Assembly (NCBI GenBank): GCA_965116025.1
Contig: OZ220480.1
Location: 320,001-384,000, forward strand
Reading direction: 5' to 3'
DNA: 64,000 nucleotides
Source: an uncultured candidatus Porisulfidus sp.
GTDB lineage: Bacteria; Pseudomonadota; Gammaproteobacteria; Poriferisulfidales; Poriferisulfidaceae
Shown: positions 21,706 through 44,916 of the stretch, piece after piece
Layout of the letters: every line of letters begins with the position of its first letter
How positions within the stretch are numbered: position 1 is the stretch's first letter
The notes under the pieces: generated by a model
Told to the model about the DNA's origin: nothing
Database searches by the model: none
The model's input: the letters and a program-made list of their open reading frames with translations, nothing else
Position numbers and translations under genes: made by a program

Positions 21706-21718
21706 CGGACGATCTTCC

Positions 21719-22012
21719 ATGAGCGACGAACGCACCTACATCGTCACCTACGACATCTCCAATCCAAAGCGCTGGCGGCGTGTTTTCAAAACCATGAATG
21801 GATTCGGAGAGTGGCTTCAACTATCGGTATTCCAATGCCGTCTTTCGCTCCGGCGCCGAGCGGAATTGGAAACCCAGTTGCGCGAACTGATCAAGGCGGG
21901 TGAGGACCACGTTCTGGTGATCGACATCGGCCCAGCGGACAAGACCAATGTCGCCGTCATGAGCATCGGCAAGACTTTCTCGTCAATCGAACGGCACGCT
22001 GTCATTGTATGA
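21719..22012 (+). CDS. cas2: CRISPR-associated Cas2
   Basis: YIVTYDIS, WLQLSVFQC; 97 aa directly after cas1. Confidence 0.95.
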   Translation: MSDERTYIVTYDISNPKRWRRVFKTMNGFGEWLQLSVFQCRLSLRRRAELETQLRELIKAGEDHVLVIDIGPADKTNVAVMSIGKTFSSIERHAVIV

Positions 22013-22277
22013 TGGGACGATTGAGTTCGGGAAACCATACGTCAATGCTCGGTATCAAAAATAATGGGCATCGCCTCCGCCGGGTCGATTCGAGCGGCGC
22101 GACAATGCTGAATTGCCGGGGCTCGCTCGAAACCGCGCATCCTATTGATGAATCCGCATTTCAGTGTGATAGACTGGTCGCGCATGGTGCGAATTGGATG
22201 CTTATGCCAAAGAAATTTGACGACCGCTCGAAATCGTCCGAAATTTGCCTTGGAAAACAAATGGTTGCAAGCCGCGG
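22013..22277 (+). promoter_or_regulatory. CRISPR leader region
   Basis: Lower-GC segment between cas2 and the first repeat; repeats end in ATTGAAGC on + and the truncated repeat is at the far end. Confidence 0.65.
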
Positions 22278-25150: not shown

Positions 25151-25210
25151 GGCGAAACAGAGCCTCTTTGATATACTTTTTCAGAACTTCCTGAATAGGG
25201 TGAAGAAATA

Positions 25211-26464: not shown

Positions 26465-28138
<1,674 letters not shown>

Positions 28139-28195
28139 AACCCGGATGAATAGACTCGATTCCGATCTAGCCTTTATGAAGGGACCAAACCACTT

Positions 28196-30994
28196 GTGAA
28201 AGACGAATATTCCGCCATGGATTTCGTTGCATTCTTCAAGGATGTCCATGACTATGAACCATTTCCGTGGCAACACCGATTAACTGAACAGGTGCTTGAT
28301 CAGAGGAAATGGCCAAAAGTCATCAGCCTTCCGACTGGTACGGGCAAGACCGCGGTGCTCGACACAGCTATATTCGCCATGGCTGCACATCCAGAGACCA
28401 CTCCCCGGAGAATCGTTTTTGTCATTGATCGCCGGATTGTCGTCGATCAAGTCTACAAACGGGCCCAGCAAATTCAAAAGCGCGTAGAGACGGCTAAAAC
28501 CCTCGTACTGAAACACATCCGGGATCGCCTACGAGAGTTAAGTGATGGTGAAACTTTGGGCATCGCCGCGTTACGAGGGGGAATTCCTATTGACGGCGAC
28601 TGGGCACACCGTCCAGACCAACCATGGGTAATGGTTTCCACAGTAGATCAGTTCGGCTCTCGTCTCTTGTTTCGAGGCTACGGAGTAAGCCCGGGTATGA
28701 GGCCAATTCATGCCGGACTTACCGGTAACGACTGCCTTGTGATCTTGGATGAAGTACATTTAAGCGTTCCATTCGCGCAAACCCTCACCCAGATATCCAC
28801 GCTGTCACCAGAGGGACCACTACCTCAAAGGTTTATTACGGTCGAAATGTCTGCCACTCCCAATGATAGGGAATCAAACCCTTTTACCTTGGACCCCGAG
28901 AAGGATCTAGAAGAATGCGCAGAGCTGCGACGCCGCATGAAAGCCGATAAGCGAGCGAAACTCATACCAGCGCGAGATCAAGAAGCCATTCCAGCCACCG
29001 TGAAGAAAATCGTCAAGTCCATACGCAAGAACGAATCGCAAGTTCGTAGCGTTGGTGTCATCGTGAATCGGGTACGAACAGCTCGCGATACCTACGCCAC
29101 ACTTATTGATGAAGGCTATCCAACATACCTGATCACCGGACGAATGCGCCCACTGGATCGGGTTTATGCACTGGAACGAATCGGCCCAGTCGTCAACCCT
29201 GATAGCGATCAGCATGAGGATCAACTCGCGGTCATAGTCGCGACTCAAGCCATTGAGGTCGGTGCGGATTTCAGTTTCGACGCGCTCATCACCGAATGCG
29301 CCGCGGTCGATAGCCTCCGACAACGGTTTGGACGCCTTGATCGCCGCGGAACCTATTCAGAACGTACCGGATCTCCGGCTCAAGCTTGGATTATCGGACC
29401 CAAGTCAGTAGTTGGCTCCAAAAAACCCGATCCTATTTACGGCGAGTCAGTCAGGGCGACATGGGAAGAACTTGAACGACGCCGCGAAGATGATGGGGAG
29501 CTGGCAGTCGGCCCAATGGCGTTGCGGGATAATTTTCCAGACAACGCAACTGCACCGAAAATATATGCGCCACTCCTCTTAAGAACGTACATGGATGCTT
29601 GGGTACAAACTAGACCCGAGCCCATAGCACAACCTTCCATCGACTGGTTTCTTCACGGCATTGAGCAGAACAAACCAGCGGATGTCTCGGTTCTGTGGCG
29701 ATTTGATCGAACTTCAGAAACTCTACGTCTAGTTCCTCCCCAGCAAGCGGAATTCATTCAAATACCCGCCCAAGCAGTCAAATCATGGCTAGCAGGAACA
29801 TCGGAAGTCGATATCGCCGATGTTAGTCAAGCGCAAGAATCTGATAATACCGACACCCAAAATAAATCGCACGTCAAAAACTGGGTACGCTGGGATGGAT
29901 TCGATGAAGGCGCAAAGAATGATATCCAGGTCATGGACATCCGCCCTGGAGATGTACTCATACTAGACCCCAAGTGTGGCGGTTTGACAGCCGGAACGTG
30001 GGATCCATCCTCGGAAGATCCAGTAACGGACCTCGGCGATGCGGCACAGATAGAATCTGGGCGTAGGGTCACATTGCGACTCGATCCGAATCTTCCCCAC
30101 ATGGTCTCTCCACCAGCTCCAGCTGACGAAGCCATAGCAGACACATCGCCCTCTCAACGAATCTCGGCATGGCTTGAATCTTATATATCCGATTCGAAAG
30201 ATCAGTCGTGCTGGATGCACAAAGCCATTGAAAATCTGGGGAGTGACTTCGATGTAATCCCAGTGGGGACCGGCAACGATTGTCTTGGGAAAAGTTATTA
30301 CATCCTGATCTCAAAGGACCCAAATACGAAGAAACCTATGGTGGATGCGGCGACACTTGACGGCTCAGACGAGACAGGTTCTTTCACATCAACAGGCATA
30401 AGCCTGGGTCAGCATTTGGATGGTGTCGGAAAACGCGCCGGACAAATAGCCGAAAGATTGGGATTACCATGCGAGGTCGTACAAGATCTCAGATTGGCCG
30501 GTCATTTGCACGATCTCGGTAAGGTGGATAGCCGTTTCCAATATCAACTGGTGGGCGGCGACATGGTTGAACTGGCAATGCGACGCGAAGAGCCACTAGC
30601 TAAGTCATTACCGGGAACTCGCAAGGTTCCAGGGTATCCCAAGGGAATGCGGCATGAGATCGCGAGTGTAGCAATGATTTTATCGAATACTGATATTCTC
30701 AGTCTCGCTCACGACGAGGACCTAGTACTCCACCTGGTTGGAACGCACCATGGCTGGGGGCGGCCACTGCCACCAATCATTGAAGACCCGAATCCTCAGA
30801 CACTTGAATACAGATGGAACGGGCACTTCCTAGCCGCAAAATCGGATCTAGTAGAAAGCTCTTTGGCTCTCGACATGGCCAACCGCTTCTGGGATCTAGT
30901 TGAGCATTATGGGCACCACGGATTGGCTTGGCTTGAAGCCATCTTACGGCTGGCTGACCATCAGCAAAGTGCCGAGGAGAGCAAGAAAGTATGA
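28196..30994 (+). CDS. cas3: Type I-G Cas3 helicase with C-terminal HD nuclease
   Basis: PFPWQ, LPTGTGKT, DEVH, MSAT, QRFGRLDR; C-terminal HDLGK, RHE, HHG, RLAD. Start could be 28217. Confidence 0.95.
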   Translation: MKDEYSAMDFVAFFKDVHDYEPFPWQHRLTEQVLDQRKWPKVISLPTGTGKTAVLDTAIFAMAAHPETTPRRIVFVIDRRIVVDQVYKRAQQIQKRVETAKTLVLKHIRDRLRELSDGETLGIAALRGGIPIDGDWAHRPDQPWVMVSTVDQFGSRLLFRGYGVSPGMRPIHAGLTGNDCLVILDEVHLSVPFAQTLTQISTLSPEGPLPQRFITVEMSATPNDRESNPFTLDPEKDLEECAELRRRMKADKRAKLIPARDQEAIPATVKKIVKSIRKNESQVRSVGVIVNRVRTARDTYATLIDEGYPTYLITGRMRPLDRVYALERIGPVVNPDSDQHEDQLAVIVATQAIEVGADFSFDALITECAAVDSLRQRFGRLDRRGTYSERTGSPAQAWIIGPKSVVGSKKPDPIYGESVRATWEELERRREDDGELAVGPMALRDNFPDNATAPKIYAPLLLRTYMDAWVQTRPEPIAQPSIDWFLHGIEQNKPADVSVLWRFDRTSETLRLVPPQQAEFIQIPAQAVKSWLAGTSEVDIADVSQAQESDNTDTQNKSHVKNWVRWDGFDEGAKNDIQVMDIRPGDVLILDPKCGGLTAGTWDPSSEDPVTDLGDAAQIESGRRVTLRLDPNLPHMVSPPAPADEAIADTSPSQRISAWLESYISDSKDQSCWMHKAIENLGSDFDVIPVGTGNDCLGKSYYILISKDPNTKKPMVDAATLDGSDETGSFTSTGISLGQHLDGVGKRAGQIAERLGLPCEVVQDLRLAGHLHDLGKVDSRFQYQLVGGDMVELAMRREEPLAKSLPGTRKVPGYPKGMRHEIASVAMILSNTDILSLAHDEDLVLHLVGTHHGWGRPLPPIIEDPNPQTLEYRWNGHFLAAKSDLVESSLALDMANRFWDLVEHYGHHGLAWLEAILRLADHQQSAEESKKV

Positions 30995-31917
30995 GTGGCA
31001 CACATATTCCCGGGCTCGAAGGAACAAACCCATTGGGTTTGTTCGCAGCTATTGGCATACAGGTGGCGTTCGCGACCGAGGACCGGCAACCACGGCTGTG
31101 GTGGAGTGACGATGTTACTCCGCACGCGATCATAGATAAAGAATTCACCATTGACCTGATCGTGCAGAAAGCATTAAAAGAATTTTCGCTCTGGAAGGAA
31201 AGCCCGGCCATCAAGCCACAAAGAACGGACGGCTCAAAAATGCCTAAGAGCGAAGAACTCAAACTGCTACCCGAAGACATTAAAGTGTATCTCGATCAGG
31301 CGGAGCGGTGTACCCGAGGCCGTGGCTTGGCTACTGCTCTCCTAGCTCAGGGTAGCCTAGACAACAACGGTATAGCAAAACCATCCGACTTCTACTTCAT
31401 GGCGGGCCAACAGAAGTTCTTGGATATAGCCCACAAAATCCTAACCGCCGCCAATCACGATGAAATCAAGGCTGGCCTTGAAGGCCCATGGCGCTACGAA
31501 AGCGATATTCTTTCCCTTGGATGGGATGTCGCCGACGACCGCGTATATGCCCTCATGGCAAACGACCCTAGCGCGGAAAAGAAAAAAACAAACCCCGGTC
31601 CGGAAGCATTGGCTCTATTGGGGGTGAGCCTGTATCCGGTCTTCGCAAAGCAAGGGCGCACGAAGACACAAGGATGCTCCGGAACATGGAAGAAGGGGCA
31701 TTTTTCTTGGCCTATTTGGCGAAAGCCCGCATATCCTAGTGTTGTCAAATCGCTATTAGCACATGCATACGACTGCGACCGTGCGGTAGATTCAAATCGT
31801 CATCGCTGGTACAAATCCTGGGGCATATCCACCATCCTTCGATCACCAATCCGTCGTACCAACCAAGGCGGCTACGGAACATTCGGCCCACCGGAGATCA
31901 TGTGGCAACAAGCATGA
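30991..31917 (+). CDS. csb3: Type I-G short large-subunit, Csb3/Cas8u2-like
   Basis: GLEGTNPLGLFAAIG, AGQQKF, GPWRY, FSWPIW; 308 aa, overlaps the cas3 stop. Confidence 0.75.
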   Translation: MSGTHIPGLEGTNPLGLFAAIGIQVAFATEDRQPRLWWSDDVTPHAIIDKEFTIDLIVQKALKEFSLWKESPAIKPQRTDGSKMPKSEELKLLPEDIKVYLDQAERCTRGRGLATALLAQGSLDNNGIAKPSDFYFMAGQQKFLDIAHKILTAANHDEIKAGLEGPWRYESDILSLGWDVADDRVYALMANDPSAEKKKTNPGPEALALLGVSLYPVFAKQGRTKTQGCSGTWKKGHFSWPIWRKPAYPSVVKSLLAHAYDCDRAVDSNRHRWYKSWGISTILRSPIRRTNQGGYGTFGPPEIMWQQA

Positions 31918-32120: not shown

Positions 32121-33500
32121 CTAGGCCAGAACCTGTAGCATCTCTTCACGCCGGGTGAACTTCTCCCGCGGCTTGCCCTTGGACTCGCCTCGGCTAATCT
32201 CCTCCGCGTCAATCCGTCGCCATTCCGCGAAATTCACGCTACGCACGTCACGTTCGGACAGCAGCTGGGCCAACGCGTCCGACCCCGGGCGGTCCGCGGG
32301 GAGGCTGGACAGGTCGTCTTTCAGAGATTCGACCGTTTGGACCGCGCAAGCGCGGTTGGTCCCGATAATTCCAGATGGACCGCGCTTGATCCAGCCAGCC
32401 GTGTAGAGGCCCGGCGCCACCGCTCCATCCGGGCCATCGGTGATCCGGCCTTCTTGGTGGGGGAAGACGCCCCAGGAATCATGGAACGGAACGCCCTTAA
32501 TAGGAACGCCACGGTAACCGATAGAACGAAACAGCAACCCGCACTCCAGCTCCTCGGTCTCGCCGGTGCCTGATGCGCGTTGCGAGAACGGCCCGCCCGA
32601 CAGTTCGTTGCGCTCCAAGACGACACGCTCGATCCCGCCGTCTCCCTCAATACGGATCGGGCTACGGCAGAACATCATGCGGCAGGTTCGGGGCTTGCCA
32701 TGTTCCGACTCTTCCGCCATCTTCTCGAAAATCGCCATGTTCTTGGCGGCCACCGCGCCGAGCTTCTTATCCCCAACCTCGGCCTGGCTAGCCTCATTGA
32801 GCGCGAGCTCTCTGGAGTCGATAACCGCCTGGCAGTTTTCCAGTTCCAGAAACTCGCGCAACTCCTTGGTCGTGAATTTCGCCTGCGCCGGGCCACGGCG
32901 ACCGATGACGGCGATCATCCGGATCCGGCTTTCCGCCAGCTCGTCCAAGGCATGCTGGGCGATATCGGTATGCTTGAGCTCATCCACCGATTTGGAGAGG
33001 ATGCGCGCCACGTCGGCCGCGACGTTTCCTTGCCCGATGATCGCGGCAGTCTCATGCGAGAAATCGAACTCGCGGTCGCGGTAGTCCGGGTGTCCGTTGT
33101 ACCAGCCGACGAATTCCGTCGCGGTGTGGCTGCCGGCGAGGTCCTCGCCCTCAATCCCCAAGCGGCGGTCCGTCTCGGCGCCACAGGTATAGATCACGGC
33201 GTGGTAGATGTCACGCAGCTCTTGGGGGGCGACATCCTCGCCGACCGTCACGTTGCCGAAGAAGCGAAAACCCTCAAGCGTGGCGATTCTCTCGTAGACC
33301 TTGATCGACTGCTTGAGCTTTGGGTGGTCCGGCGCGACGCCGCTGCGAACCAAGCCGTAGGGAGAAGGCAAGCGCTCGATAAGGTCAACCCGAACCTCGA
33401 GTTCGGATTTCAGCAGGGCTTCGGTAGCGTAGAAGCCACTGGGCCCGGCACCAACGATCACGACCCGCAGGGGCGCGGCCTCTGTCCCCAATTGGCTCAT
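32121..33500 (-). CDS. Ferredoxin-NADP+ reductase, adrenodoxin reductase/FprA type
   Basis: GAGPSG, PYGLVRSGVAPDH, FVGWYNGHP, GQGNVAAD, GWIKRGPSG. Confidence 0.92.
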   Translation of the reverse strand: MSQLGTEAAPLRVVIVGAGPSGFYATEALLKSELEVRVDLIERLPSPYGLVRSGVAPDHPKLKQSIKVYERIATLEGFRFFGNVTVGEDVAPQELRDIYHAVIYTCGAETDRRLGIEGEDLAGSHTATEFVGWYNGHPDYRDREFDFSHETAAIIGQGNVAADVARILSKSVDELKHTDIAQHALDELAESRIRMIAVIGRRGPAQAKFTTKELREFLELENCQAVIDSRELALNEASQAEVGDKKLGAVAAKNMAIFEKMAEESEHGKPRTCRMMFCRSPIRIEGDGGIERVVLERNELSGGPFSQRASGTGETEELECGLLFRSIGYRGVPIKGVPFHDSWGVFPHQEGRITDGPDGAVAPGLYTAGWIKRGPSGIIGTNRACAVQTVESLKDDLSSLPADRPGSDALAQLLSERDVRSVNFAEWRRIDAEEISRGESKGKPREKFTRREEMLQVLA

Positions 33501-33503
33501 GGA

Positions 33504-33809
33504 TCAGAATCCCAGAGCGGTCTTGCGCTCATCCGCTCCCGGCAACGGATCCATCTTGTCTTCCAGCACTGGGAGATCAGGAGCCCGTTCGGCGTTAATC
33601 TCGATCCACTCTTGCTTGTCTTCCGGCAGATCGTCCTCCTCGTAAATCGCCTGGACCGGGCATTCCGGGATGCAGGCGCTGCAGTCGATGCAGACATCCG
33701 GGTCGATGTACAGCATCTCGTCGTCATAATGGAAGCACGCGACGGGGCAAACCGTTACGCAGTCCGTATAGCGGCAACCTTTGCAGTTGTCGGTCACGAT
33801 CGTGGTCAT
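33504..33809 (-). CDS. fdxA: 7Fe/8Fe ferredoxin (FdxA-like)
   Basis: CKGCRYTDCVTVCP and CIDCSACIPECP. Confidence 0.9.
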   Translation of the reverse strand: MTTIVTDNCKGCRYTDCVTVCPVACFHYDDEMLYIDPDVCIDCSACIPECPVQAIYEEDDLPEDKQEWIEINAERAPDLPVLEDKMDPLPGADERKTALGF

Positions 33810-33990: not shown

Positions 33991-34992
<1,002 letters not shown>

Positions 34993-35227: not shown

Positions 35228-36040
35228 CTAGCGCGAATCGAACACGAGGATTTCTCCCCGGTTCTCCTCCACGCTATCGCCGCAATAGCGCCGGTAGCGT
35301 CCTCCCATGTAGACATCGTCGAGGTCGAAGCCGCTCTGCGCGATATGGCACAAGTAGAACCGGAGGAACGTGGGCCGCAACCAGCAGGAGTAGGAGAACG
35401 TCGGGAGCAACTCCACCGGCTGGAACGAGACGATCGTGCCGCGGATCATGCCCGCGCCCGGGCGGGCGCCCATGCCGCCCATCACGATGATGGTTCCGGC
35501 GCGCATGTTGACGCCGGCGAAATCGCCGGCCGACCCGCCCACCGCGATCAGTCCCCGGCGCATGGCCGAGCCCAGCTCGTTCTTGACGTCGCCATGAATC
35601 AGGATCTCCCCGCCCAGGATTCCGACGCGCTGGCCCCGGTAGGCGCTGCCCACCATGTGGCCAGCGTCACCCATCACCTCGATCCGGCCTCCGCTCATCT
35701 CCGGGCCCACCCAATCGGACGCGTCTCCGGAGACCCGGATCGTCCCCCCAGACATGCCGACGCCCAAGTGCATGCCGGCGGAGCCGTTCACGAGGATCTC
35801 GCCTTCCGTCATCCCGGCGCCGATGTACTTGACTCGTGACAGGTCGCCTTCCAGGCGGAGCGAGGACTGGCCGTTCCCGGTCACCCGAAAGAAGTCCCCG
35901 ACCCGGACCTTGCGGTTGCCATGCATCATCTCGAGGTTCTCGATCCCCGATTGCGACAGCCCCTTGATTTTCGCCGGGCTCAGGCACTCCGCCTCGAGCG
36001 GGACCTCCGGCGCGGTGACCAGTTCCAGCTCGGTCGGCAT
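35228..36040 (-). CDS. fwdC: Formylmethanofuran dehydrogenase subunit C (FwdC/FhcC)
   Basis: GXGXG beta-helix repeats (GAGMTEGEI, GVGMSGG) and VPLEAECLSP. Confidence 0.9.
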   Translation of the reverse strand: MPTELELVTAPEVPLEAECLSPAKIKGLSQSGIENLEMMHGNRKVRVGDFFRVTGNGQSSLRLEGDLSRVKYIGAGMTEGEILVNGSAGMHLGVGMSGGTIRVSGDASDWVGPEMSGGRIEVMGDAGHMVGSAYRGQRVGILGGEILIHGDVKNELGSAMRRGLIAVGGSAGDFAGVNMRAGTIIVMGGMGARPGAGMIRGTIVSFQPVELLPTFSYSCWLRPTFLRFYLCHIAQSGFDLDDVYMGGRYRRYCGDSVEENRGEILVFDSR

Positions 36041-36042
36041 GA

Positions 36043-36936
36043 TCAGGCGCTCTCCAGCAATTCGTAAAGGCCGAATTTGTGCTGGCCGAGCGTTCCGCCG
36101 TAGTTGCCCGCGCTGACGTAGTCCACGCCGCGCGCCGCGGCCGCCCGGATCCCCCGGCGCATGGCCTCGCGCAAAGCATCCTCCGTGAGCCCATTGACGA
36201 CGACCTCGTACACCGCCGCGATGCCTTCCGGCAACATTGTATGCTTCACGCGTCCGCGCAGGGTCGGGCAGTAGGCCTCGTTGGTGGAGGCGATCAGACT
36301 CTTGTAGCGCGATCCCACCTTGCTTCCGGAGCCGACCACCCCTTGCGGGAACGGCAGAAACACGCCCGCCACGTGGCGCATCGCCTCCGCCGCGTCCGAC
36401 GCGGCGCGCAGCGCGACCTGTCCGCTCTTGCCCAGCATCAGCAGATTGCCTCCTCCGATGGCGGGCTGCACCCCGAAGACGTCGTCCACCAGGAACTCGC
36501 CGCCCATGATCGGGATTCTCCAGAATCTCCGATCACCGACCACCTTCGCGATCTGGTGTCCGTCTCCGAAGAACCGCAGGCGCTGGCCGACCGGCACGAC
36601 GGTCTCCCCCGCGAGCCCGTTGTAGCAAGCGGTCGTCGGGCAGGTCATCACGCATTGCCCGATGCGCTCGACCAAGCGCGCGCTCATGTCCTTCTCGCTC
36701 ATCGCGAACAGCAGCACGCTGATCCCCGGGCGCAGGTCCGGCGTGTCGGTATCGGGAATCTCGCACTCCACGGCCGCCTCGCACTTGCAACGGATCACGG
36801 AGGTGGCGAATCCGGTGATGGACTGCGCCGCGGCGCGCGCCCAACTCTTGGTGGCGGCGGTGATGATGACGCGCGCGCCCCACATGCCGAAGGCCTCGGC
36901 GAACGTGTCGACCACCTCGGTCTTGCCGATCCTCAT
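36043..36936 (-). CDS. ftr: Formylmethanofuran-H4MPT formyltransferase (Ftr/FhcD)
   Basis: DTFAEAF, GFATSVI, RIGQCVMTCPTT, SGSKVGS, SAGNYGG. Confidence 0.95.
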   Translation of the reverse strand: MRIGKTEVVDTFAEAFGMWGARVIITAATKSWARAAAQSITGFATSVIRCKCEAAVECEIPDTDTPDLRPGISVLLFAMSEKDMSARLVERIGQCVMTCPTTACYNGLAGETVVPVGQRLRFFGDGHQIAKVVGDRRFWRIPIMGGEFLVDDVFGVQPAIGGGNLLMLGKSGQVALRAASDAAEAMRHVAGVFLPFPQGVVGSGSKVGSRYKSLIASTNEAYCPTLRGRVKHTMLPEGIAAVYEVVVNGLTEDALREAMRRGIRAAAARGVDYVSAGNYGGTLGQHKFGLYELLESA

Positions 36937-38597
36937 TTCCGCTTGCCGTCCGGGTCGCGTGGCGGAATGACCTCATGGTCGTGAAGATAGGAGGCGTCCA
37001 CCCGGTAGTTGTTGAACTGGATCGAGTAGTAGTCCTCGAAGAACGGCCGGATCTGGTCCTCGATCACGGAGTCGTAACTGGGCTCCGTGTGCAGAAATCG
37101 CCCAGTATGGTCCGCGACGAACTCGTGGTTCTCGATGATCATCTTGCCGGCCTTGATCACGTAGCGCGGAGCGTTGAACATCGCCTCGCGGTCCTCCTCG
37201 TCCGTGTAGACCGTGACATCGGCGTCCGCCCCAACCCCCAAGTGCCCCTTGTTCGCAAGGCCCAGCGCCCGGGCCGGAGCCGCGCGCGTGATGATGGCGA
37301 TCTCCGACAGGGTGTATTCCCGGTCCAGCTGCGGCAACAGGCTGTTTCGGATGGCCTTCTGGTTGACCCGCTTCATCATCTCGGTTCGATATCCCCGGTC
37401 CATCAGCAGGCGGATCACCTTCGGGTAGGTCACGAAGGAGGCGCCGTTCGGATGGTCGGTCGAGAACATCACGCGCCAAGGGTCTTGGGACAGCAGGAAC
37501 AGCTCTAGCCCGATCGCCCACTGCATGGAGTGCGTGTAGCTCGTGTCCTGATAGCTGAACGGCATGACCCCGCAACCGCTCTCGCACTCCGTGTCGGCGT
37601 TCACCCACTTGGCGTCCTTGTGCCGCAGCATCCAGGTCAGCGGAGCGTCCGCGGTCATGGCCGTAGCCTTGCCGAACATCACCATGCCGATGTCGGCCGT
37701 GAGATTCTCATGAGTGTTGAGGTAGTCGATGATGGGTTCCGATCCCGTCTTGACGCGTCCCCCGAGCTCGCCCGCGTAGCTATGGAACTGGACGTGCGCG
37801 ATGTGCGCCCGATGTCCCTCGGCCGCCTTCATCGTGTCCAGCGTGGTCCGGTAGTTGCCGCTGTGCCCCAGGTTGTTGCAGTGGACGTGCGCCGGATGGG
37901 GGAGATTCAGCTCGTCCACCGCCTCGATGAAAGCGTTAGTGACCTGAAGCGGGGTCAAGTCGAACGGGTCGATCTGCTCGTTGACGTCGGTCACGTTCTC
38001 GTTGCGCTTCCCCTTCCAGAACTCGTCGCTGCCGGCGTTGACCAGCTTGACTCCGGCGGCCCGGGCCGCCGTCACCCACCAGGCGATAGCGTTCTTGAAG
38101 TCCCGCTTGCGTCCCTGCTTGAGCAGGTCGTACAGGAACATGTTGTTGCCGAGCAAGACGTAGAAGCCCTTGTCGATCACCGGAGTGTCGTGGAATTCCT
38201 CGATGACGTGGCGCGCCGCCAGCGGCGGCACGGCGGCGTCGAACGCCGTGGTGTAGCCCAGCGCGGCGTAGCGGTAGCCGGTGGCGAACGTCGACGGCGT
38301 GACCCCGCCGACCCCGGACCGAGTCACGTCGGTGCCGGGGTGGACGTCGAGGCGGTGGTCCTCCGGCTGCAGCTTGCGCGAGAGGTTGACCTTGGGCCCG
38401 GCGATGTGGCAATGGATGTCGACGGCGCCCGGCATGACCACCATGCCGTGCGCGTCGATGGTTCGCGCCGAATCGGAGACCTTGTCCACGACGCGCCCGT
38501 CGCGGATAAGGATGTCGCGGACATCGCCGTCCACGCCATTGGCCGGATCGTAGACCCTTCCGCTTTTGATGCGAAGTTCCACGCCCTTCTCAGCCAT
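36933..38597 (-). CDS. fwdA: Formylmethanofuran dehydrogenase subunit A, amidohydrolase (FwdA/FhcA)
   Basis: DIHCH, KLVNAG, HVHCNNLG, HVQFHSY, STDHPNG metal-ligand motifs. Confidence 0.95.
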   Translation of the reverse strand: MAEKGVELRIKSGRVYDPANGVDGDVRDILIRDGRVVDKVSDSARTIDAHGMVVMPGAVDIHCHIAGPKVNLSRKLQPEDHRLDVHPGTDVTRSGVGGVTPSTFATGYRYAALGYTTAFDAAVPPLAARHVIEEFHDTPVIDKGFYVLLGNNMFLYDLLKQGRKRDFKNAIAWWVTAARAAGVKLVNAGSDEFWKGKRNENVTDVNEQIDPFDLTPLQVTNAFIEAVDELNLPHPAHVHCNNLGHSGNYRTTLDTMKAAEGHRAHIAHVQFHSYAGELGGRVKTGSEPIIDYLNTHENLTADIGMVMFGKATAMTADAPLTWMLRHKDAKWVNADTECESGCGVMPFSYQDTSYTHSMQWAIGLELFLLSQDPWRVMFSTDHPNGASFVTYPKVIRLLMDRGYRTEMMKRVNQKAIRNSLLPQLDREYTLSEIAIITRAAPARALGLANKGHLGVGADADVTVYTDEEDREAMFNAPRYVIKAGKMIIENHEFVADHTGRFLHTEPSYDSVIEDQIRPFFEDYYSIQFNNYRVDASYLHDHEVIPPRDPDGKRK

Positions 38598-38633
38598 GGA
38601 GGCCGTTCCCCATCTCCCAGTTTGGTGAAAAGA

Positions 38634-39992
38634 TTACGCCGCCTTCTTATGGCCCTTCGACCGGCGTTCCTTCAGGCGAGAGTAAATCCCGTTCAGGACC
38701 TCCTCGTCCGTCGGAAACGGGGAATCGAAGGCCGGGCGCAAGGTGATCGGCACGTCGTCCATGCGGTACACGGTGCCGCCGGTGTTGATCCCGTAGGTGG
38801 CGACCATGAACGCGACTCGGGCCTGGCGACTGGTGTAGGTCGGCTTGGCGTCCAGAGAGATCACCGGGATGCGCTTCAGACGCTCGATCGCGCGCTTCGG
38901 GAAGTTCGAGGCGGGGTCCGTGGCGATCATCAGCGCCGCGTCGGCGTCGCCGCGCGCCAGCAGATCCACGGTGGTGAACTCGCCTGGGTTGAAGCGCGGA
39001 TAGCCACGGTGAAAGTTGACTCCGAACGGGTAGCCGGTCTGCCACGACACCACGTTGTCGGCCCCGGTGACGTTGCCGTGCCCGCGCACCGGCTTGGCGA
39101 CGAAATGGGTGTGCTTGTTCAGGTCAGTGGCCAGCGCCAGCAACGCGCCCGAGTTGAAATGGCGCCCACGGGTCATGGTCAGCCCCATGCCGAAGAACAG
39201 CACCCCGTAGTTGCAGCTCTTCATGCGTTCCACCAGATCGTCCAGAGTCGCGCGCGACACGCCCGTGATCTCCTCGATGTCGGCGTGGACGTCGCGCCCA
39301 CGCACCCGGGCGCGCAGGGCCCAGAGCAACTCGAAGTCGCGCCCAGGCTTGACCCGCACGACCTGGTCCGCGACCGGCGCGCTGGGCGTCTTGCGCACGT
39401 CGACCAGCACGACGTGGCGGTCCTTCTTGCCGTTCGGGATGTAGCGCCCTTTCGGCGTGACGGTGTAGCGCGTGAAATGCCTAGGATGGGACTCGGCTGG
39501 GTTGCCGCCCCAGTAAATGACCAGATCGGCGCGGTTCTTGACCTCGCCCAGCGTCGCCGTGCTCTCGCCGACGCCCTGGAAGGCGATCCCGGACGGGCCG
39601 TGGCACACCGAGGTGGTGGTGTCGATGTTGCCGCGGATCAGATCGTTGATGGCCACCGCCACGCGCTGCGCCTCGCACGGCGAGTCGCTCAGCCCATAGG
39701 TGATCGGAAACTTCGCCTCGCTCAGGACGCGCGCCGCCTCGTCCATCGCCTCCTCCAGCGGAACCTCGCGCCCATCGATCATCGCCTGCGGATGATCCTC
39801 TATGCCGTGCTGCAGGAACCAGGCGCGCCCGAGGACGCAAGCGTTCTTGGCTTTCGTGATCCGGTTCGCCTCCAGATCGACGGTCAGCTCCATATCATCG
39901 CAGACGCACCCGCAGAACGTGCAGGTGGCGTCCTTGACGACGCGGGTCGCGGGCGGGGCCGCGGCGGCCTCGGGGGGCGTGGTCTCGCTCAT
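38634..39992 (-). CDS. fwdB: Formylmethanofuran dehydrogenase subunit B, Mo/W-pterin type
   Basis: CTFCGCVCDD...NAC, SVCHGPS, GEVKNRAD, HPRH, RGHGNVTG. Confidence 0.93.
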   Translation of the reverse strand: MSETTPPEAAAAPPATRVVKDATCTFCGCVCDDMELTVDLEANRITKAKNACVLGRAWFLQHGIEDHPQAMIDGREVPLEEAMDEAARVLSEAKFPITYGLSDSPCEAQRVAVAINDLIRGNIDTTTSVCHGPSGIAFQGVGESTATLGEVKNRADLVIYWGGNPAESHPRHFTRYTVTPKGRYIPNGKKDRHVVLVDVRKTPSAPVADQVVRVKPGRDFELLWALRARVRGRDVHADIEEITGVSRATLDDLVERMKSCNYGVLFFGMGLTMTRGRHFNSGALLALATDLNKHTHFVAKPVRGHGNVTGADNVVSWQTGYPFGVNFHRGYPRFNPGEFTTVDLLARGDADAALMIATDPASNFPKRAIERLKRIPVISLDAKPTYTSRQARVAFMVATYGINTGGTVYRMDDVPITLRPAFDSPFPTDEEVLNGIYSRLKERRSKGHKKAA

Positions 39993-40016
39993 GGAATCGG
40001 CACGCTCGTCAGGGCC

Positions 40017-40370
40017 TCAGTCGGCGCCCAGGCGCTCCACCTCCACCATCATCTGCTTCGACATCGGCATGCCGGAGCCCGCCGTGTCGCTCTCCATCAG
40101 CTCGCTGGAGCACGGGCCGTACGGGATGAAGATCATGTCGTCCGGAAGATCCGCGTCCTTGCGCGCCTTCCCGCATTTCACCTCCACCTTGCCAGTGGCG
40201 CAGGACAAGCGCACCCGGTCTCCGGCGGAGATCCCGAGCCGGCGCATGGCGCTCTCGCTCATCTCGATGGTTGAGGTGACATCCTGATACTCATCCTTGA
40301 GTTTCCCGGCGTTCAGGGAAGTTCCCTGCTTGCTCGACCGTCCGGGTATCAGCATCATCCGTTCCGCCAC
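40017..40370 (-). CDS. fwdD: FwdD-like molybdopterin dinucleotide-binding subunit
   Basis: LIPGRSSKQG, IFIPYGP, DTAGSGMPMSK; first gene of the operon. Confidence 0.85.
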   Translation of the reverse strand: MAERMMLIPGRSSKQGTSLNAGKLKDEYQDVTSTIEMSESAMRRLGISAGDRVRLSCATGKVEVKCGKARKDADLPDDMIFIPYGPCSSELMESDTAGSGMPMSKQMMVEVERLGAD

Positions 40371-40405
40371 TGGCGCAGCCTCGCCGTGATTTCAGGGGGA
40401 AGAGA

Positions 40406-40411
40406 ATTATA
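40406..40411 (-). promoter_or_regulatory. Putative -10 box of the fwd operon
   Basis: TATAAT on the minus strand 35 bp upstream of fwdD in a GC-rich context. Confidence 0.45.
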
Positions 40412-40461: not shown

Positions 40462-41640
40462 TCAAAGACGCTCCCGCCGCAAGGCCGCTCGCCGCGCCGT
40501 GAGCCATCCGACCAGCATCCCCGCCAGGGCGACCGCCGCCGCGACGTGAAACGTCGCCGCGGGCCCGAAGTCTTCCCAAAGCGCCCCGCTGATCAAGCTG
40601 CCCAGAGCCGCGCCCACGCCGTAGTTGAGAGACAGGTACAGAGCCTGACCCCGGCTCTGAAACCGGCCGGGGAACAGCTGGTGAATGAGACGCATGGAGA
40701 CGGTATGGTAGGTGCCGTAGACCACGGCATGCAGCAGCTGGGCCGCCAGCAGCGCCGGCCACAGGTCTGGAAAATTCCCGAGCAGAGCCCAGCGAACCGC
40801 CGCGAAAAAGAACGCGGCCGCGAATAGGAGACGCGCCGAATAGCGATCCAGCCTTCGCGCCAGATACAGGAACACGGCGATCTCGCCGAGCACCCCGACC
40901 GACCACAGCGCGGCCAGACTGTAGATCGGATAGCCGTGGTCTTCCACGTAAATGGAGAAGAACGCGTAGAACGGTCCATGGCTGGCCTGCATCAGGACGA
41001 ACGCCGCCAGAAGCCCCAGCACGGGCGGATGGCGAATCAGGCTGACCAACGTGATGTGAGGCGAATGCTCGCGCCTCTGGGGCCGGCCGGTCAGCGTCAG
41101 GCTGACCAGCCATAGCCCGAAATGGCAGAAAAACCAGCCTAGCGGAATGAGCCGCATGGCGTCGGCCTCCGCGTGAAACAGAGCGGTCGAGAGAATGACG
41201 CAGGAAAAGATGAAGCCGGTCGACCCCCACGCCCGAACGCGCATGTAGGTGTAGCGCGGAGTCGCCTGCCGCTCCAGGTGCGTCAGCGTGAGACCCTCGA
41301 CCAGCGGCAACGAGGCGCACCAGAAAAAGCTGGACGCCAGCATCAGCAGGGCCATCCCGCGAAAGTCGCTGGCCCAGAGCGTCCCCAGCGCGGCCACCAT
41401 GCCCCCCAGCGTGGCGAGCCACACCAGCGGGACCCTGCGCCCGGTATGGTCCGCCAGCCAACCCCAGACGTTCGGCGCCACGACGCAAGCCGCCATCGCC
41501 ACCGCCATCAACTGCCCGATCTCGACCGCGCTGAACCCCAAGGACCTCCAGTAAAGCGGCCAGAATGGAAGAAACACGCCGAGAGCGGCGTAGTACAGAA
41601 AATAAAAGCCGGAGAACCGGCCGTACAGGAACGGGGTCAC
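40462..41640 (-). CDS. MFS transporter (HcaT/nucleoside permease-like)
   Basis: LPFWPLYW, WGWLADHTGRR, RVRAWGSTGF; about 12 TM segments. Confidence 0.88.
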   Translation of the reverse strand: MTPFLYGRFSGFYFLYYAALGVFLPFWPLYWRSLGFSAVEIGQLMAVAMAACVVAPNVWGWLADHTGRRVPLVWLATLGGMVAALGTLWASDFRGMALLMLASSFFWCASLPLVEGLTLTHLERQATPRYTYMRVRAWGSTGFIFSCVILSTALFHAEADAMRLIPLGWFFCHFGLWLVSLTLTGRPQRREHSPHITLVSLIRHPPVLGLLAAFVLMQASHGPFYAFFSIYVEDHGYPIYSLAALWSVGVLGEIAVFLYLARRLDRYSARLLFAAAFFFAAVRWALLGNFPDLWPALLAAQLLHAVVYGTYHTVSMRLIHQLFPGRFQSRGQALYLSLNYGVGAALGSLISGALWEDFGPAATFHVAAAVALAGMLVGWLTARRAALRRERL

Positions 41641-41653
41641 GCGCCGGGGAAGT

Positions 41654-42730
41654 CTAGGGCGCCGCCGCGCCGTCGCCGCACTGGGCGCGATGGCGCAAGG
41701 CCTGGTCCATCAAGGTCAGCGCCAGCATAGCCTCGGCGATCGGCACGGCGCGCAGGCCCACGCAGGGATCGTGGCGCCCCTTCGTCACCACCTCCACCGC
41801 CTCCCCCTTCCGGTTGATCGAGCGTCCCGGGATCCGGATGCTCGAGGTCGGCTTGAAGGCCAACGCGACTCGCAAGTCCTGCCCGGTGCTCACGCCCCCC
41901 AGGACGCCGCCGGCGTGGTTCGACAGGAAGCCTTCCGGCGCGATCTCGTCGCGGTGCTCGCTGCCGCGCTGCCCGACCACGGCGAAGCCGTCCCCGATCT
42001 CCACCGCCTTGACCGCGTTGACGCTCATCATCGCCTGGGCCACCATGGCGTCCAGGCGCTCGAAGACCGGCTCGCCCCAGCCGGCCGGCAGGCCGGTCGC
42101 CTCCACCTCCACCCGGGCGCCGATCGAGTCGCCCGCCCGGCGCAGGTCGTCCATGAACCGCTCCAGCTCGGCGATTCTTCCGGGCTCCGGAAAGAAAAAC
42201 GGATTCTCCTCGACCGCCGCCCAGTCCGTGGTCTCGGCGCGGATCGGGCCGACCTGCCGGACGCATCCGCGAATCTCCACCCCGTGGCGCTCGCGCAGCC
42301 ACTTCCGGGCCACTCCTCCGGCGGCCACCCGGGTCGCGGTCTCCCGCGCGGAGGCCCGCCCCCCTCCGCGCGGATCGCGGATTCCGTATTTTCTTTGGTA
42401 GGTGTAGTCCGCGTGCCCCGGGCGGAAGCGCTCGCGCAGGTCCGCGTAGTCTTTGGAGCGAGCGTCCTGGTTCTCGATCACCAGCGCGATCGGGGTCCCG
42501 GTCGTCTTTCCCTCGAAAACCCCGGAGAGGATTCGGACCCGATCCGGCTCGCGCCGCTGACTGGTGTGCCGGGTCTGGCCTGGCCGGCGGCGGTCCAAGT
42601 CGCGCTGCAGGTCGGCCTCCTCGAGCTCCAGGAGCGGCGGGCAACCGTCGATGACGCAGCCGATGGCGGGGCCATGGCTTTCGCCGAAAGAGGTGACGGC
42701 GAACAGAGAGCCGAAGGTGTTGCCCGTCAT
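41654..42730 (-). CDS. aroC: Chorismate synthase
   Basis: [30 protein letters not shown]. Confidence 0.98.
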
Positions 42731-42787
42731 GGTCCGGGATTCTACACCGCCCCGCCGCGAAACCGCGATCCGGGCCCGGATCGCGTC

Positions 42788-42821
42788 CTGTCATACGCTC
42801 GTTACAAGTCTCGCTTTTAAT
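42788..42821 (+). promoter_or_regulatory. Pho box and -10 upstream of pstS
   Basis: CTGTCAT-ACGC-TCGTTAC (11-bp period), then 10 bp, then TTTAAT, the geometry of PhoB promoters. Confidence 0.65.
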
Positions 42822-42885
42822 GCGGCGCGCGAACGGGGTCATCCCCGCCAAACCCATCGATAAAGCCTAGAGGATCTAACACATA

Positions 42886-43914
42886 ATGAACTTCCGAATT
42901 TCCGCGATCGCCCTGCTCGCGCTGGCCGCCTCCACGGGCGCCCAGGCCCGCGACCAAATCAACATCGTCGGCTCTTCCACCGTCTATCCCTTCGCCACGG
43001 TCGTCGCCGAGCGATTCGGCAAGACCACGGCCTTCAAGACCCCGAAAATCGAATCGACCGGCTCCGGCGGCGGCCTGAAGCTGTTTTGCTCCGGCGTCGG
43101 CACCAGCACTCCGGACATCACGAACGCCTCGCGCAAGATCAAGAGCAAGGAGGTCGAGACGTGCGCCAAGAACGGCGTCGGCGACGTCACCGAGGCCAAG
43201 ATCGGCTACGACGGCATCGTCCTCGCCAACTCCAAGGCGACGGCCCCGATGGAGCTGACCCGGCGCGACATCTTCCTGGCGCTGGCGCGCGAGGTCCCGG
43301 ACCCGAACGGCGGAGAGTCCTTCGTCGCCAACCCCCACGAGACGTGGAAGGACGTCAACCCTGCCCTGCCCGACGCCAAGATCGAGGTGCTCGGCCCGCC
43401 GCCGACCTCCGGCACCCGGGACGCCTTCGCCGAGCTCGCCCTGGAAGGAGGATGCAAGACCTTCCCCTGGATCAAGGCGATGAAGAAGAAGGACAAGAAG
43501 CGCTACAAGTCCTACTGCCACTCCGTGCGCGAGGACGGCCACTACATCGAGGCGGGCGAGAACGACAACCTGATCGTGCAGAAGCTGACGGCCAACCCGG
43601 CCGCGCTCGGCGTCTTCGGGTTCAGCTTCCTGGACCAGAACTCCGACAAGGTCCAGGGCTCCGTCATCGACGGCGTCGCCCCGGCCTTCGAGGCCATCGC
43701 CGACGGCAGCTATCCGGTGTCCCGGCCGCTGTACTTCTATATCAAGAACGCCCATCTGGACGCCATCCCCGGCATCCGGGAGTTCGTCGCCGAGTTCCTG
43801 AGCGACCGAGCGAGCGGCGCCGACGGCTATCTGACCGAGAAGGGCATGATCCCGATGTCCGGAAGCGAGCGCGAGGAGCTGGTGGCCCGGGTCACCTCGT
43901 TCACCCCGCTTTGA
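42886..43914 (+). CDS. pstS: Phosphate ABC transporter substrate-binding protein (PstS family)
   Basis: Signal peptide, GSSTVYP, STGSGGG, SGTRDAF, YPVSRPLYFY. Confidence 0.93.
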   Translation: MNFRISAIALLALAASTGAQARDQINIVGSSTVYPFATVVAERFGKTTAFKTPKIESTGSGGGLKLFCSGVGTSTPDITNASRKIKSKEVETCAKNGVGDVTEAKIGYDGIVLANSKATAPMELTRRDIFLALAREVPDPNGGESFVANPHETWKDVNPALPDAKIEVLGPPPTSGTRDAFAELALEGGCKTFPWIKAMKKKDKKRYKSYCHSVREDGHYIEAGENDNLIVQKLTANPAALGVFGFSFLDQNSDKVQGSVIDGVAPAFEAIADGSYPVSRPLYFYIKNAHLDAIPGIREFVAEFLSDRASGADGYLTEKGMIPMSGSEREELVARVTSFTPL

Positions 43915-43939
43915 GGCGGGATTTCCCGAACGTTTCGAG

Positions 43940-43968
43940 GAGGGCCGCGTTCGCGGCCCTCTTTGTTT
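43940..43968 (+). terminator. Intrinsic terminator after pstS
   Basis: Stem GAGGGCCGC/GCGGCCCTC followed by TTTGTTT. Confidence 0.8.
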
Positions 43969-44050
43969 GGGGTCGTGCTCATGAACGCGACGGGCGAGAG
44001 GGCCTCTTTGCTATACTTCAATCCGCAATGCCTTTTAGCGAGATCGCCTC

Positions 44051-44515
44051 ATGGCCGTGAGCGTGTTGAGCGCCGCGAAGTTCGCGGGCGAGTTTCTGGG
44101 GTGGTCCGTCTCCCACCTTAAAATGCAGAAAATGCTTTATATCTCGCACATGTATCACCTCGGACGAACGGGTGGCGACCCACTGGTTACAGGACAATTC
44201 GAGGCTTGGGACTATGGACCGGTGCATCCGATCCTGTATCACAAGGCAAAGATTTTCGGAGCTGATCGGGTAGAGAACATTTTTCGTCTCAATCCAGACA
44301 TTCGCGAGGAAGAGGCCCAAACCCTGAAACACATATTGAAGGTGCTCCGCGAATTTGATGGAGCGAAGCTCGTCGCGATCACCCACAGTAAAAATGGCGC
44401 ATGGGCGAAACACTACCGCCCAGGAGCGCGCGGCATCACGATCCCGAACGAGGATATTCTCGAGGAATACCGGAGGCGCGCCAAAACGGACGAGCGTGAG
44501 CGAGTCGATGCCTGA
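44051..44515 (+). CDS. Panacea (DUF4065/SocA/GepA-like) antitoxin
   Basis: SHLKMQKMLY, FEAWDYGPV, LVAITH...AW, IPNEDI. Confidence 0.88.
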   Translation: MAVSVLSAAKFAGEFLGWSVSHLKMQKMLYISHMYHLGRTGGDPLVTGQFEAWDYGPVHPILYHKAKIFGADRVENIFRLNPDIREEEAQTLKHILKVLREFDGAKLVAITHSKNGAWAKHYRPGARGITIPNEDILEEYRRRAKTDERERVDA

Positions 44516-44837
44516 TACGGGCGGTTTCGAGCAGTCGCTTGAGCAAAGCGAATCAGACGAAAAAGATGAGCAGATCGAAAAACTGGAGGAATACCTCACC
44601 AAAGAGCAAGACTCCCGGAAAGAAGAACGCTTTATCGCTCTTCTCTCTTTGGTTATTTTGCTGGATATTTTCTTTTTCACGTTGATGCCGTCTCTCGGCG
44701 GTCCCATAGCGATATTAGTTCTCCAATTATTGTTATTCGTTCCCGTGGCGAGAATGATGGGCGTTAATGAGATAGGGAGATTGCTTGATAAGGTTCTCTT
44801 CCGAGTCCTCAGCAAAAAGGAAGATAATGGGCCATAG
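44508..44837 (+). CDS. Hypothetical 109-aa two-TM membrane protein, candidate Panacea partner
   Basis: ATG 44508 overlaps the upstream stop by 8 bp; acidic coiled N-terminus then two hydrophobic helices. Confidence 0.7.
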   Translation: MPDTGGFEQSLEQSESDEKDEQIEKLEEYLTKEQDSRKEERFIALLSLVILLDIFFFTLMPSLGGPIAILVLQLLLFVPVARMMGVNEIGRLLDKVLFRVLSKKEDNGP

Positions 44838-44916
44838 TGGTGCGAGTCCCGCAGCCCGAGCGATTCGGGAAATTTAGCGAAGCGAGGTCGGGCGATCCCA
44901 GCCCCATCCCCTTGGC

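Follow-up and report, generated by a model that had tools for sequence, protein, structure and literature searches.

Intact metal-site residues and a conserved ferredoxin-reductase gene pair in a gammaproteobacterial formylmethanofuran dehydrogenase cluster point to probable formyl-tetrahydromethanopterin oxidation

The 64,000-nucleotide (nt) stretch of an uncultured candidatus Porisulfidus genome analysed here (contig OZ220480.1, positions 320,001 to 384,000; hereafter the window) contains five contiguous minus-strand genes, fwdD-fwdB-fwdA-ftr-fwdC, at 35228-40370, as read from the listing of open reading frames (ORFs) and their translations. The cluster encodes a complex of the formylmethanofuran dehydrogenase (Fwd/Fmd) type and is accompanied downstream by genes for a 7Fe ferredoxin (fdxA) and an FprA-type ferredoxin reductase (fprA). 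The system probably oxidises formyl-tetrahydromethanopterin (formyl-H4MPT) to CO2 and reduces NADP+ via the ferredoxin, a reading built on comparison of sequences. A preliminary description of the region, made from its letters alone, had recognized the five-gene operon, which NCBIfam and Protein Data Bank (PDB) matches bear out; the end that it gave, 40411, overshoots the fwdD start by 41 nt on the upstream side.

The leading gene, fwdD (40017-40370), specifies 117 amino acids (aa) when read from GTG, and its product would be the cap, or fourth-domain, subunit of the molybdenum- or tungsten-pterin (Mo/W-pterin) module. Its probable start is the ATG at 40358, which gives a better alignment with the N-termini of archaeal FwdD than the GTG at 40370. 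It is followed by fwdB (38634-39992; 452 aa), by homology the catalytic subunit that carries a Mo/W-bis-pterin and a [4Fe-4S] cluster, by fwdA (36933-38597; 554 aa), the amidohydrolase subunit (formyl-methanofuran (formyl-MFR) hydrolase/synthase), by ftr, or fhcD (36043-36936; 297 aa), for formyl-MFR:H4MPT formyltransferase, and by fwdC (35228-36040; 270 aa), the beta-helix scaffold subunit, with a C-terminal helix-loop-helix of the kind found in the formyltransferase/hydrolase complex (Fhc). Against NCBIfam, FwdB scored 500 bits (TIGR03129, cut-off 327.8) and Ftr 409.3 bits (NF002554, cut-off 297), the latter also matching Pfam FTR and FTR_C, while FwdA (695.1 bits, TIGR03121, cut-off 392.75) and FwdC (259.6 bits, TIGR03122, cut-off 130.65) both exceed the cut-offs that mark Fwd/Fmd membership. 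Among solved structures FwdA, whose HxH motif lies at residues 62/64, matches 8rja_A (2e-143), 5t5i_A (2.5e-134) and FhcA 6s6y_A (2.5e-105); Ftr is marginally nearer to FhcD, 6s6y_D (1.2e-84), than to 1ftr_A (1.2e-82). FwdD matches Pfam Molydop_binding (1e-9) and, over residues 4-111, the solved chain 5t5i_D (2.7e-13), in keeping with the earlier observation that a separate FwdD-like gene leads the operon.

The catalytic subunit is of the redox type and not of the FhcB type. FwdB aligns end to end with the corresponding chains of methanogens and an alkane oxidiser (9sfi_Q, 1.4e-111; 8rja_B, 9.9e-110; 5t5i_B, 4.3e-109), and chance similarity is excluded because these E-values are of the order of 1e-109 and better; the match to Methylorubrum extorquens FhcB (6s6y_B) stands at 9.7e-14 and covers the C-terminal half only. 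The motifs CTFCGCVC..C, SVCHG and RGHxN, to which the preliminary description had drawn attention, align to the same residues of 5t5i_B. Thus, C24, C27, C31 and C52 (CTFCGCVCDD...NAC), the Cys4 motif of a [4Fe-4S] cluster, fall on the cluster cysteines of 5t5i_B, S128-V-C130-H131-G falls on svCHg, and R303-G-H305-G-N on mRGHynv, of Methanothermobacter wolfeii FwdB. The four Fe-S cysteines are invariant in 63 aligned sequences, and each of the 80 related loci compared, the best 80 of at least 517 confirmed relatives (species genomes), retains all eight residues C24, C27, C31, C52, C130, H131, R303 and H305.

In the accessible text of PMC6926001, Cys118, His119 and Arg288 of M. wolfeii FwdB are named as catalytic and as lost from FhcB, in which Ser replaces the Cys and which lacks the Fe-S domain as well as FwdD, the fourth domain that forms a cap over the pterin; the FwdD-type cap is there called critical for the pterin site. 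The preliminary description's statement that Methylobacterium FhcB has lost its cofactor sites agrees with this account. The window proteins, in contrast, possess the Fe-S Cys4, the metal-ligand Cys-His pair, the catalytic Arg and a separate FwdD. Because B keeps the Fe-S domain, the Cys and FwdD, the complex is not placed with the M. extorquens type of Fhc. The genome also encodes a MobA that scores above its cut-off, which is only permissive evidence that a Mo/W-bis-molybdopterin guanine dinucleotide cofactor would be loaded.

Other features of the complex are those of Fhc. The position of ftr between fwdA and fwdC is that of fhcBADC. FwdC, with a PDB match at 4e-47, is aligned by archaeal FwdC only as far as residues 216-219, whereas FhcC (6s6y_C) aligns over 20-266 and is the only chain in the PDB search that aligned residues 217-266. 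An AlphaFold model of FwdC, computed from 61 sequences with a predicted local distance difference test (pLDDT) score of 94.7, places helices at 224-235 and 242-245, so that alignment and model both indicate the FhcC-type helix-loop-helix. The model superimposes on 5t5i_C with a template modelling (TM) score of 0.88; in a Foldseek comparison of the whole chain, FwdC and FhcC were not separated (TM 0.87-0.88), and it is only the tail that discriminates. PMC6926001, in the part accessible, describes how a helix-loop-helix at FhcC 216-246 replaces a beta-hairpin of FwdC and provides contacts that attach the formyltransferase, and it proposes that Fhc arose from Fwd in three steps, in which the dehydrogenase was lost, Ftr came to dock on C and the furan carrier became tethered. 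The complex encoded in the window looks like a hybrid of Fhc and Fwd because its FwdC carries the Fhc-type formyltransferase-docking tail, and it looks as if the second of these steps, Ftr docking, had been taken without the first, loss of the dehydrogenase.

No polyferredoxin of the FwdF/FwdG type is encoded in the operon or its flanks, as the preliminary description had noted; it overlooked, however, an electron module that lies downstream, the conserved fdxA-fprA pair. The product of fdxA (33504-33809, minus strand; 101 aa) is an Azotobacter-type 7Fe ferredoxin that matches 1frk_A (6.2e-32) over residues 4-94, ends in a DUF3470 tail and has C9, C12, C17, C21, C25, C40, C43, C46 and C50 invariant in 63 sequences. 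It scores 118.8 bits against NF045490 (FdxA_Protbact), below the 135-bit cut-off, and its resemblance to FwdF is weak, consisting of one cluster motif (9.8e-08) with no stretch that passes by itself. The product of fprA (32121-33500, minus strand; 459 aa) belongs to the FprA/adrenodoxin-reductase family of NADPH:ferredoxin reductases, matching Mycobacterium tuberculosis FprA (1lqt_A, 6.9e-111; residues 10-457 on 3-453) and bovine adrenodoxin reductase (1cjc_A, 1.3e-103), with Pfam Pyr_redox_2 and NAD_binding_8 matches at the N-terminus. We propose FdxA as the first electron acceptor of the complex and FprA as the outlet to NADP+. The reductase gene is single copy in the genome; the operon-linked fdxA has one paralogue elsewhere, 49% identical.

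The neighbourhood is conserved across the related loci. A FwdD homologue was found by tblastn in 78 of the 80, with fwdD just upstream of fwdB in the tabulated rows, and an Ftr homologue in 75; in most of the tabulated rows ftr stands between fwdA and fwdC, L074 and L082 being among the exceptions. Counts downstream of the operon use the 64 loci that extend at least 2200 nt beyond fwdC. Among these, fdxA comes immediately after fwdC in 58, and in 60 the gene after fdxA is fprA, giving relatives the seven-gene order fwdD-B-A-ftr-C-fdxA-fprA. In one exception, L011, a 2.3-kb insert lies between fwdC and fdxA and holds a frame with a putative potassium-channel-like signature, noted by reading its translation without a family scan. 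In four Gemmatimonadota loci the partner genes stand upstream of fwdD instead, fprA in three of them and fdxA-fprA in L074; only L069 among the 64 has neither gene. The fdxA-fprA linkage thus spans Gammaproteobacteria, Alphaproteobacteria and Gemmatimonadota and survives rearrangement. The closest FwdB loci among those listed, at 86-91% identity, come from metagenome-assembled genomes (MAGs) titled 'candidatus Porisulfidus', 'Chromatiales' or 'Gammaproteobacteria'.

In the window itself a gene for an orphan N6/N4 DNA methyltransferase (33991-34959, minus strand; Pfam N6_N4_Mtase, 6e-54) lies between fwdC and fdxA. Since it is present in none of the 80 related loci and has a lower G+C content (GC, 0.593) than the fwd genes (0.64-0.67), we regard it as an insertion into an otherwise seven-gene cluster and as standing outside the enzyme system. 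Used as a tblastn query, the methyltransferase gave 13 further matches, spread over 12 or 13 sites elsewhere in the genome.

An internal comparison is offered by bacteria that carry two sets. We searched 400 genomes drawn evenly from the same class for homologues of B at E up to 1e-20 (G248 was unscored; G039, G308, G296 and G141, flagged unpublished, were counted). A homologue was present in 53, of which 21, the Porisulfidus genome included, have a B that is 67-100% identical to that of the window; in the rest, all copies are at 25-35% identity. SVCHGP and RGHGNVTGAD occur in 21 of 21 high-identity copies, and FwdD lies upstream of B in 20 of the 21 loci, the single miss being a sequence that ends 15 nt before the gene. 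As read from the match table, 14 of the 21 genomes carry both kinds of B. In all six tandem loci that were fetched, a complete fwdD-B-A-ftr-C-fdxA-fprA adjoins a complete fhcB-A-D-C, and in all six the second B has lost the Cys (reading DHMHGD or similar) and the Arg-Gly-His motif, and has no FwdD. FwdD is retained only with an intact B, both in the tandem loci and in the class sample. Selection thus preserves the pterin-site residues along with FwdD in one paralogue, whereas they decay in the other; this is a strong argument for a redox function that the intact set has and the Fhc set has not. Degenerate FhcB-type proteins as a group (representatives P0125-P0274; loci L106-L120) have lost the pterin-site residues and nearly always keep the four [4Fe-4S] cysteines; FhcB of M. 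extorquens, the sole FhcB to have been studied, is without the whole Fe-S domain.

Beyond these genomes, a search of 1.84 billion cluster representatives with FwdB returned 2660 clusters at E up to 0.001 and 677 at 1e-30. From the best 150 representatives, 124 of at least 390 aa were used and 26 shorter ones dropped. The four Fe-S cysteines are present in nearly all of the 124, the Cys-His-Arg residues in only 16. The nearest of the best 150, P0125 (53% identity), is a FwdD-FwdB fusion, with the window FwdD aligning to its residues 3-113. Other representatives of 570-606 aa may likewise be FwdD-FwdB fusions, an arrangement confirmed for P0125. The methanogen-like clade was anchored by PDB matches (P0154 to 7bkb_H, 3e-175; P0129 to 5t5i_B, 2.9e-137), and FwdB of the window is 43-52% identical to its cluster representatives. 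In an IQ-TREE phylogeny of 62 rows the FwdB proteins of the seven-gene type form one clade (support 100) made up of Gammaproteobacteria, Alphaproteobacteria, Gemmatimonadota and one Chloroflexota MAG, and the gammaproteobacterial FhcB copies a separate clade (support 100) on a long branch; no grouping of B with cofactor-less FhcB was seen. FastTree with 125 rows placed the window B on the methanogen-like side (96), as did IQ-TREE with 62 rows, in that case with a support of only 46; IQ-TREE with 64 rows, which included two miscut sequences (L116_fhcB and L107_B; branch length 5.7), placed it on the FhcB side (96). Because the trees differ on this deep placement, we assign neither a donor nor a direction of transfer. 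The earlier term 'archaeal-type' is apt for the features of the complex, but a recent transfer is not indicated, given an identity of 43-52% and a clade that extends across several bacterial phyla. The possibility that the operon is a recent island was likewise considered and rejected; its GC (0.64-0.67) is near the genome value of 0.627, and relatives of the same genus and order also carry it.

In the textbook route of H4MPT-dependent formaldehyde oxidation in bacteria, Fhc releases formate, which is then oxidised by separate formate dehydrogenases. The Porisulfidus genome is a single contig of 2.02 Mb (62.7% GC, 99.4% complete) from a gammaproteobacterium nearest to sponge-associated lineages, and it has one B gene only, with no degenerate Fhc set beside it. 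An H4MPT island encodes MptG (beta-ribofuranosylaminobenzene 5'-phosphate (beta-RFAP) synthase), an Mpt_N (MtdB-like) protein, Mch, an MptN-like glutamate ligase and Fae; a second Mpt_N gene lies elsewhere, and mfnB, for the furan carrier, is present. As the H4MPT/methanofuran pathway is thus present in the genome, the earlier reading survives on this count. A stand-alone second Ftr paralogue, 40% identical to the operon Ftr, is encoded outside the window (C1:599108-599980). With respect to substrates, the best genome score for a pyrroloquinoline quinone (PQQ) alcohol dehydrogenase (TIGR03075) was 28.6 bits, against a cut-off of 480, and a genome search for pmoA/ammonia monooxygenase (AMO) gave no match, a result that is uninformative as the controls were silent too. 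No metal-free formate dehydrogenase scored above cut-off in the genome, and no gene reached the cut-off of any formate dehydrogenase family. Besides FwdB, the only genes with PF00384 encode a 1179-aa ORF, putatively NuoG-like as judged by reading without a family scan, and a 763-aa cytoplasmic MopB protein that scores 273 bits against dmsA_ynfE (cut-off 778) and 251 against the formate dehydrogenase alpha family TIGR01591 (cut-off 666).

The sequences themselves establish which genes are present, that the catalytic residues are in place, that the neighbourhood is conserved and that the genome has the pathway; cofactor loading, the direction of the reaction, coupling to ferredoxin and FprA, and the channelling of formate are what we infer from this material. 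Ftr, docked on the Fhc-type tail of FwdC, would take the formyl group off formyl-H4MPT and load it onto the furan carrier, and FwdA would hydrolyse the resulting formyl-furan. The formate would be retained and oxidised to CO2 at a Mo- or W-bis-pterin site of FwdB capped by FwdD, with two electrons passing from the [4Fe-4S] cluster of FwdB to the 7Fe ferredoxin FdxA, from which the FprA-type flavoprotein would hand them to NADP+. The complex would in this way form the last step of a complete Fae-MtdB-Mch route of formaldehyde oxidation in the 2.0-Mb genome. The potential of NADP+ is about -0.32 V. The formyl-MFR couple is given as -0.53 V in the accessible part of a review, and with these values oxidation should be favoured and the reverse not. 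Of the preliminary description's view that a complex with Fhc gene order is redox-active, in either direction, the oxidative half thus finds support, while the reverse is unlikely with a partner at the level of NADPH.

Several observations count against this reading. FwdD, although matched at 1.6e-20, reaches only 73.5 bits against NF042908, below the 175-bit cut-off, and FwdB has no Pfam family at E up to 0.001; sequence, moreover, does not distinguish Mo from W. In the window the methyltransferase gene parts fwdC from fdxA and a hairpin lies in the gap before fdxA, such that co-transcription is not assured. No RNA runs are listed for the stretch, the two listed data sets being of DNA type and from one study. 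The 763-aa MopB protein is not excluded as a second formate oxidiser. In the searched literature, which omits most subscription journals, we found no biochemical study of a bacterial Fwd. Finally, there are two genomes of the class sample in which the electron-transfer genes adjoin a degenerate fhcB: in G204 (L123, C4) fdxA-fprA lies directly upstream of it, and no set of the Fwd type occurs within the 9 kb upstream; in G381 (L122/L108, C33) fprA alone does so. Neither has an intact set in the 9-13 kb fetched, nor a second B match at E up to 1e-20; B of G204 reads HCHGD where its kin read HMHGD, and the Arg-Gly-His motif is absent. The genes in G204 and G381 may be the remnant of a lost Fwd set, or may serve something else.

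The last of these possibilities leads to an alternative in which FwdBD is redox-active and makes CO2 but another ferredoxin or carrier takes the electrons, FdxA and FprA not being the physiological partners; the neighbouring pair might then meet a different need, for instance by providing NADPH or reduced ferredoxin for another reaction connected with formyl-MFR enzymes in general. Besides G204 and G381, this alternative can draw on the second FdxA paralogue of the genome and on the Fe-S cysteines that nearly all degenerate FhcB-type proteins keep, as contact with a ferredoxin might not need the pterin site. A prediction of the FwdB-FdxA complex from the alignments of the two proteins scored 0.17, below the mark, and counts neither for nor against it. 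The alternative is difficult to reconcile, however, with a linkage that holds in 58-60 of 64 loci across three groups of bacteria and withstands rearrangement, with the presence of fprA in a single copy, or with the fact that in genomes without an Fhc set, such as that of Porisulfidus, the pair stays with the Fwd set. We therefore think it rather unlikely that the pair serves another purpose. Much less likely again is that the complex is an ordinary formate-releasing Fhc hydrolase in which the features of FwdB and FwdD are structural relics or serve assembly only. It could be argued that the B-A-ftr-C order and the FwdC tail are Fhc-like, and that the Fhc of M. extorquens, in the accessible sources the sole bacterial complex studied biochemically, releases formate. 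Relics, however, would not stay invariant, and here none of the 80 related loci, and none of the 21 of the class sample, has lost any of the eight residues; FhcB paralogues of the same genomes have lost their pterin-site residues, FwdD occurs only with an intact B, and the genome has no gene above a formate dehydrogenase cut-off that would dispose of released formate.

That the complex runs reductively, with CO2 being fixed on the furan carrier in the manner of methanogens, is an option that was raised in the preliminary description and derives some plausibility from the reversibility of archaeal Fwd stated in the accessible part of a review. We consider it highly improbable. The partners are at the level of NADPH and a 7Fe ferredoxin, the cluster encodes neither a bifurcating nor a low-potential donor, the couple at -0.53 V is unfavourable, and fae, an enzyme gene of the oxidative route, is next to mtdB and mch; genes of the reductive branch such as mer were not searched for. 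Oxidation of formyl-H4MPT with delivery of electrons through FdxA and FprA is thus the reading that we prefer. A bolder extension of it, which we offer tentatively and would not be surprised to see fail, is that the complex is a surviving intermediate between the CO2-fixing Fwd of methanogens and the Fhc of methylotrophs: a single supercomplex in which a tethered furan would carry the formyl group from Ftr to FwdA, formate would be tunnelled to the Mo/W site and NADPH would emerge, free formate and a separate formate dehydrogenase both being absent. Such a complex might work in bacteria that live in oxic habitats such as sponge tissue and upland soil, and might be how formaldehyde oxidation chiefly ends in a large fraction, for the most part uncultured, of the Gammaproteobacteria, the Gemmatimonadota and other groups.

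The bacterial Fwd type has in part been noted in print already. PMC10100899 counts 149 representatives of bacterial FwdB, which it traces to transfer from Archaea, and regards Fhc as the form that belongs to aerobic methylotrophs; according to a 2016 opinion article (PMC5020050), Planctomycetes and Proteobacteria lack fwdD, and in what is accessible of PMC8788690 and PMC11264602 the genes are named in figure legends only. Among the literature matches listed, no paper linked Fwd to FprA or a 7Fe ferredoxin. The fdxA-fprA module and the Fhc-type FwdC tail extend the interpretation given in the preliminary description. The intact FwdBD type is widespread, occurring in 21 of 400 sampled Gammaproteobacteria genomes and at least 517 species genomes, often beside a degenerate Fhc set. 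If the complex is active, the bookkeeping of C1 oxidation would change in many uncultured bacteria, with CO2 formed directly and NADPH gained in place of NADH or formate; it would represent a natural Mo/W catalyst of CO2/formate that must work in aerobes, and would supply a missing step in the evolutionary path from Fwd to Fhc that was proposed from the Fhc structure.

The remainder of the window holds other features. A major facilitator superfamily (MFS) transporter gene (40462-41640) stands between the operon and three minus-strand ORFs upstream of it (41637-45175; 406, 312 and 385 aa), for which no Pfam or NCBIfam match was found; the 406- and 312-aa ORFs and the MFS gene recur only in the closest relatives among the best 80 of at least 517 loci. 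A type I-G locus of clustered regularly interspaced short palindromic repeats (CRISPR) and cas genes occupies 19954-31917 and comprises a Cas4-Cas1 fusion (19954-21705), a CRISPR array from 22272 to about 25000 with some 40 repeats of about 36 nt, genes of the GSU0053 and GSU0054 families (25211-28138), Cas3g (28196-30994) and a Cas3-extension protein (30991-31917); at the cas3 end the GC is only about 0.52, against 0.63 for the genome. Defence-like genes at 3965-5704 and 14310-19664 encode an AAA_5 (McrB-like) ATPase and a 1784-aa protein with DUF4011, superfamily-1 helicase and MTES_1575 nuclease parts, and together with the CRISPR locus look like a defence island. At the far end, 58870-63999 on the minus strand (71-75% GC) is one giant gene of at least 1709 aa with an open 5' end, the translation of which, read without a family scan, looks like fibronectin-III-like and Calx-beta-like repeats followed by a C-terminal autotransporter-barrel-like region. 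A 1374-aa ORF in another frame (58856-62980), which has no Pfam match and overlaps the giant gene, looks spurious.

Comparison with characterized systems underlines the mixed nature of the complex. With methanogen FwdABCDFG (M. wolfeii, 5T5I) it shares homologous subunits A to D, an end-to-end match of FwdB and a separate FwdD cap; unlike that enzyme it has a 7Fe ferredoxin and an FprA-type reductase instead of FwdF/FwdG, ftr inside the operon, an Fhc-type tail on FwdC and an expected direction that is oxidative. FhcABCD of M. extorquens (6S6Y) resembles it in the B-A-ftr-C order, in the tail of FwdC, in being the nearest source of Ftr (FhcD) and in its place at the end of the H4MPT route of formaldehyde oxidation, but in the accessible description its FhcB is without the Fe-S domain, has Ser for Cys and is not accompanied by FwdD, all of which the window B keeps. 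The F420-reducing Fmd of Candidatus Ethanoperedens thermophilum (8RJA), the best PDB match of FwdA (2e-143) and a top match of FwdB, offers, as far as its accessible description goes, a parallel for an oxidative Fmd/Fwd core with a swapped electron module and an end acceptor other than ferredoxin; it differs in being archaeal and anaerobic, in reducing F420 and in its electron-transfer subunits. The closest bacterial counterpart in gene order is found in the single-cell genomes of Hakuba Actinobacteria (PMC7325909), in which, according to the accessible text, fwdDBA-ftr-fwdC encodes a FwdB with the N-terminal [4Fe-4S] domain and Cys118, in a complex that could be active; there, however, the phylum is another one, the context is the Wood-Ljungdahl pathway, the authors found no genes of H4MPT biosynthesis and, in the same portion of the paper, fdxA-fprA is not mentioned. 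For the electron module the likeness is to mycobacterial FprA (1LQT) and 7Fe FdxA, which the accessible text of PMC6208970 counts among the reductase/ferredoxin partners of M. tuberculosis: the window encodes a full-length FprA homologue and a 7Fe ferredoxin. The mycobacterial pair, however, feeds cytochromes P450 from NADPH, whereas the flow proposed here would be the opposite, from the dehydrogenase to NADP+.

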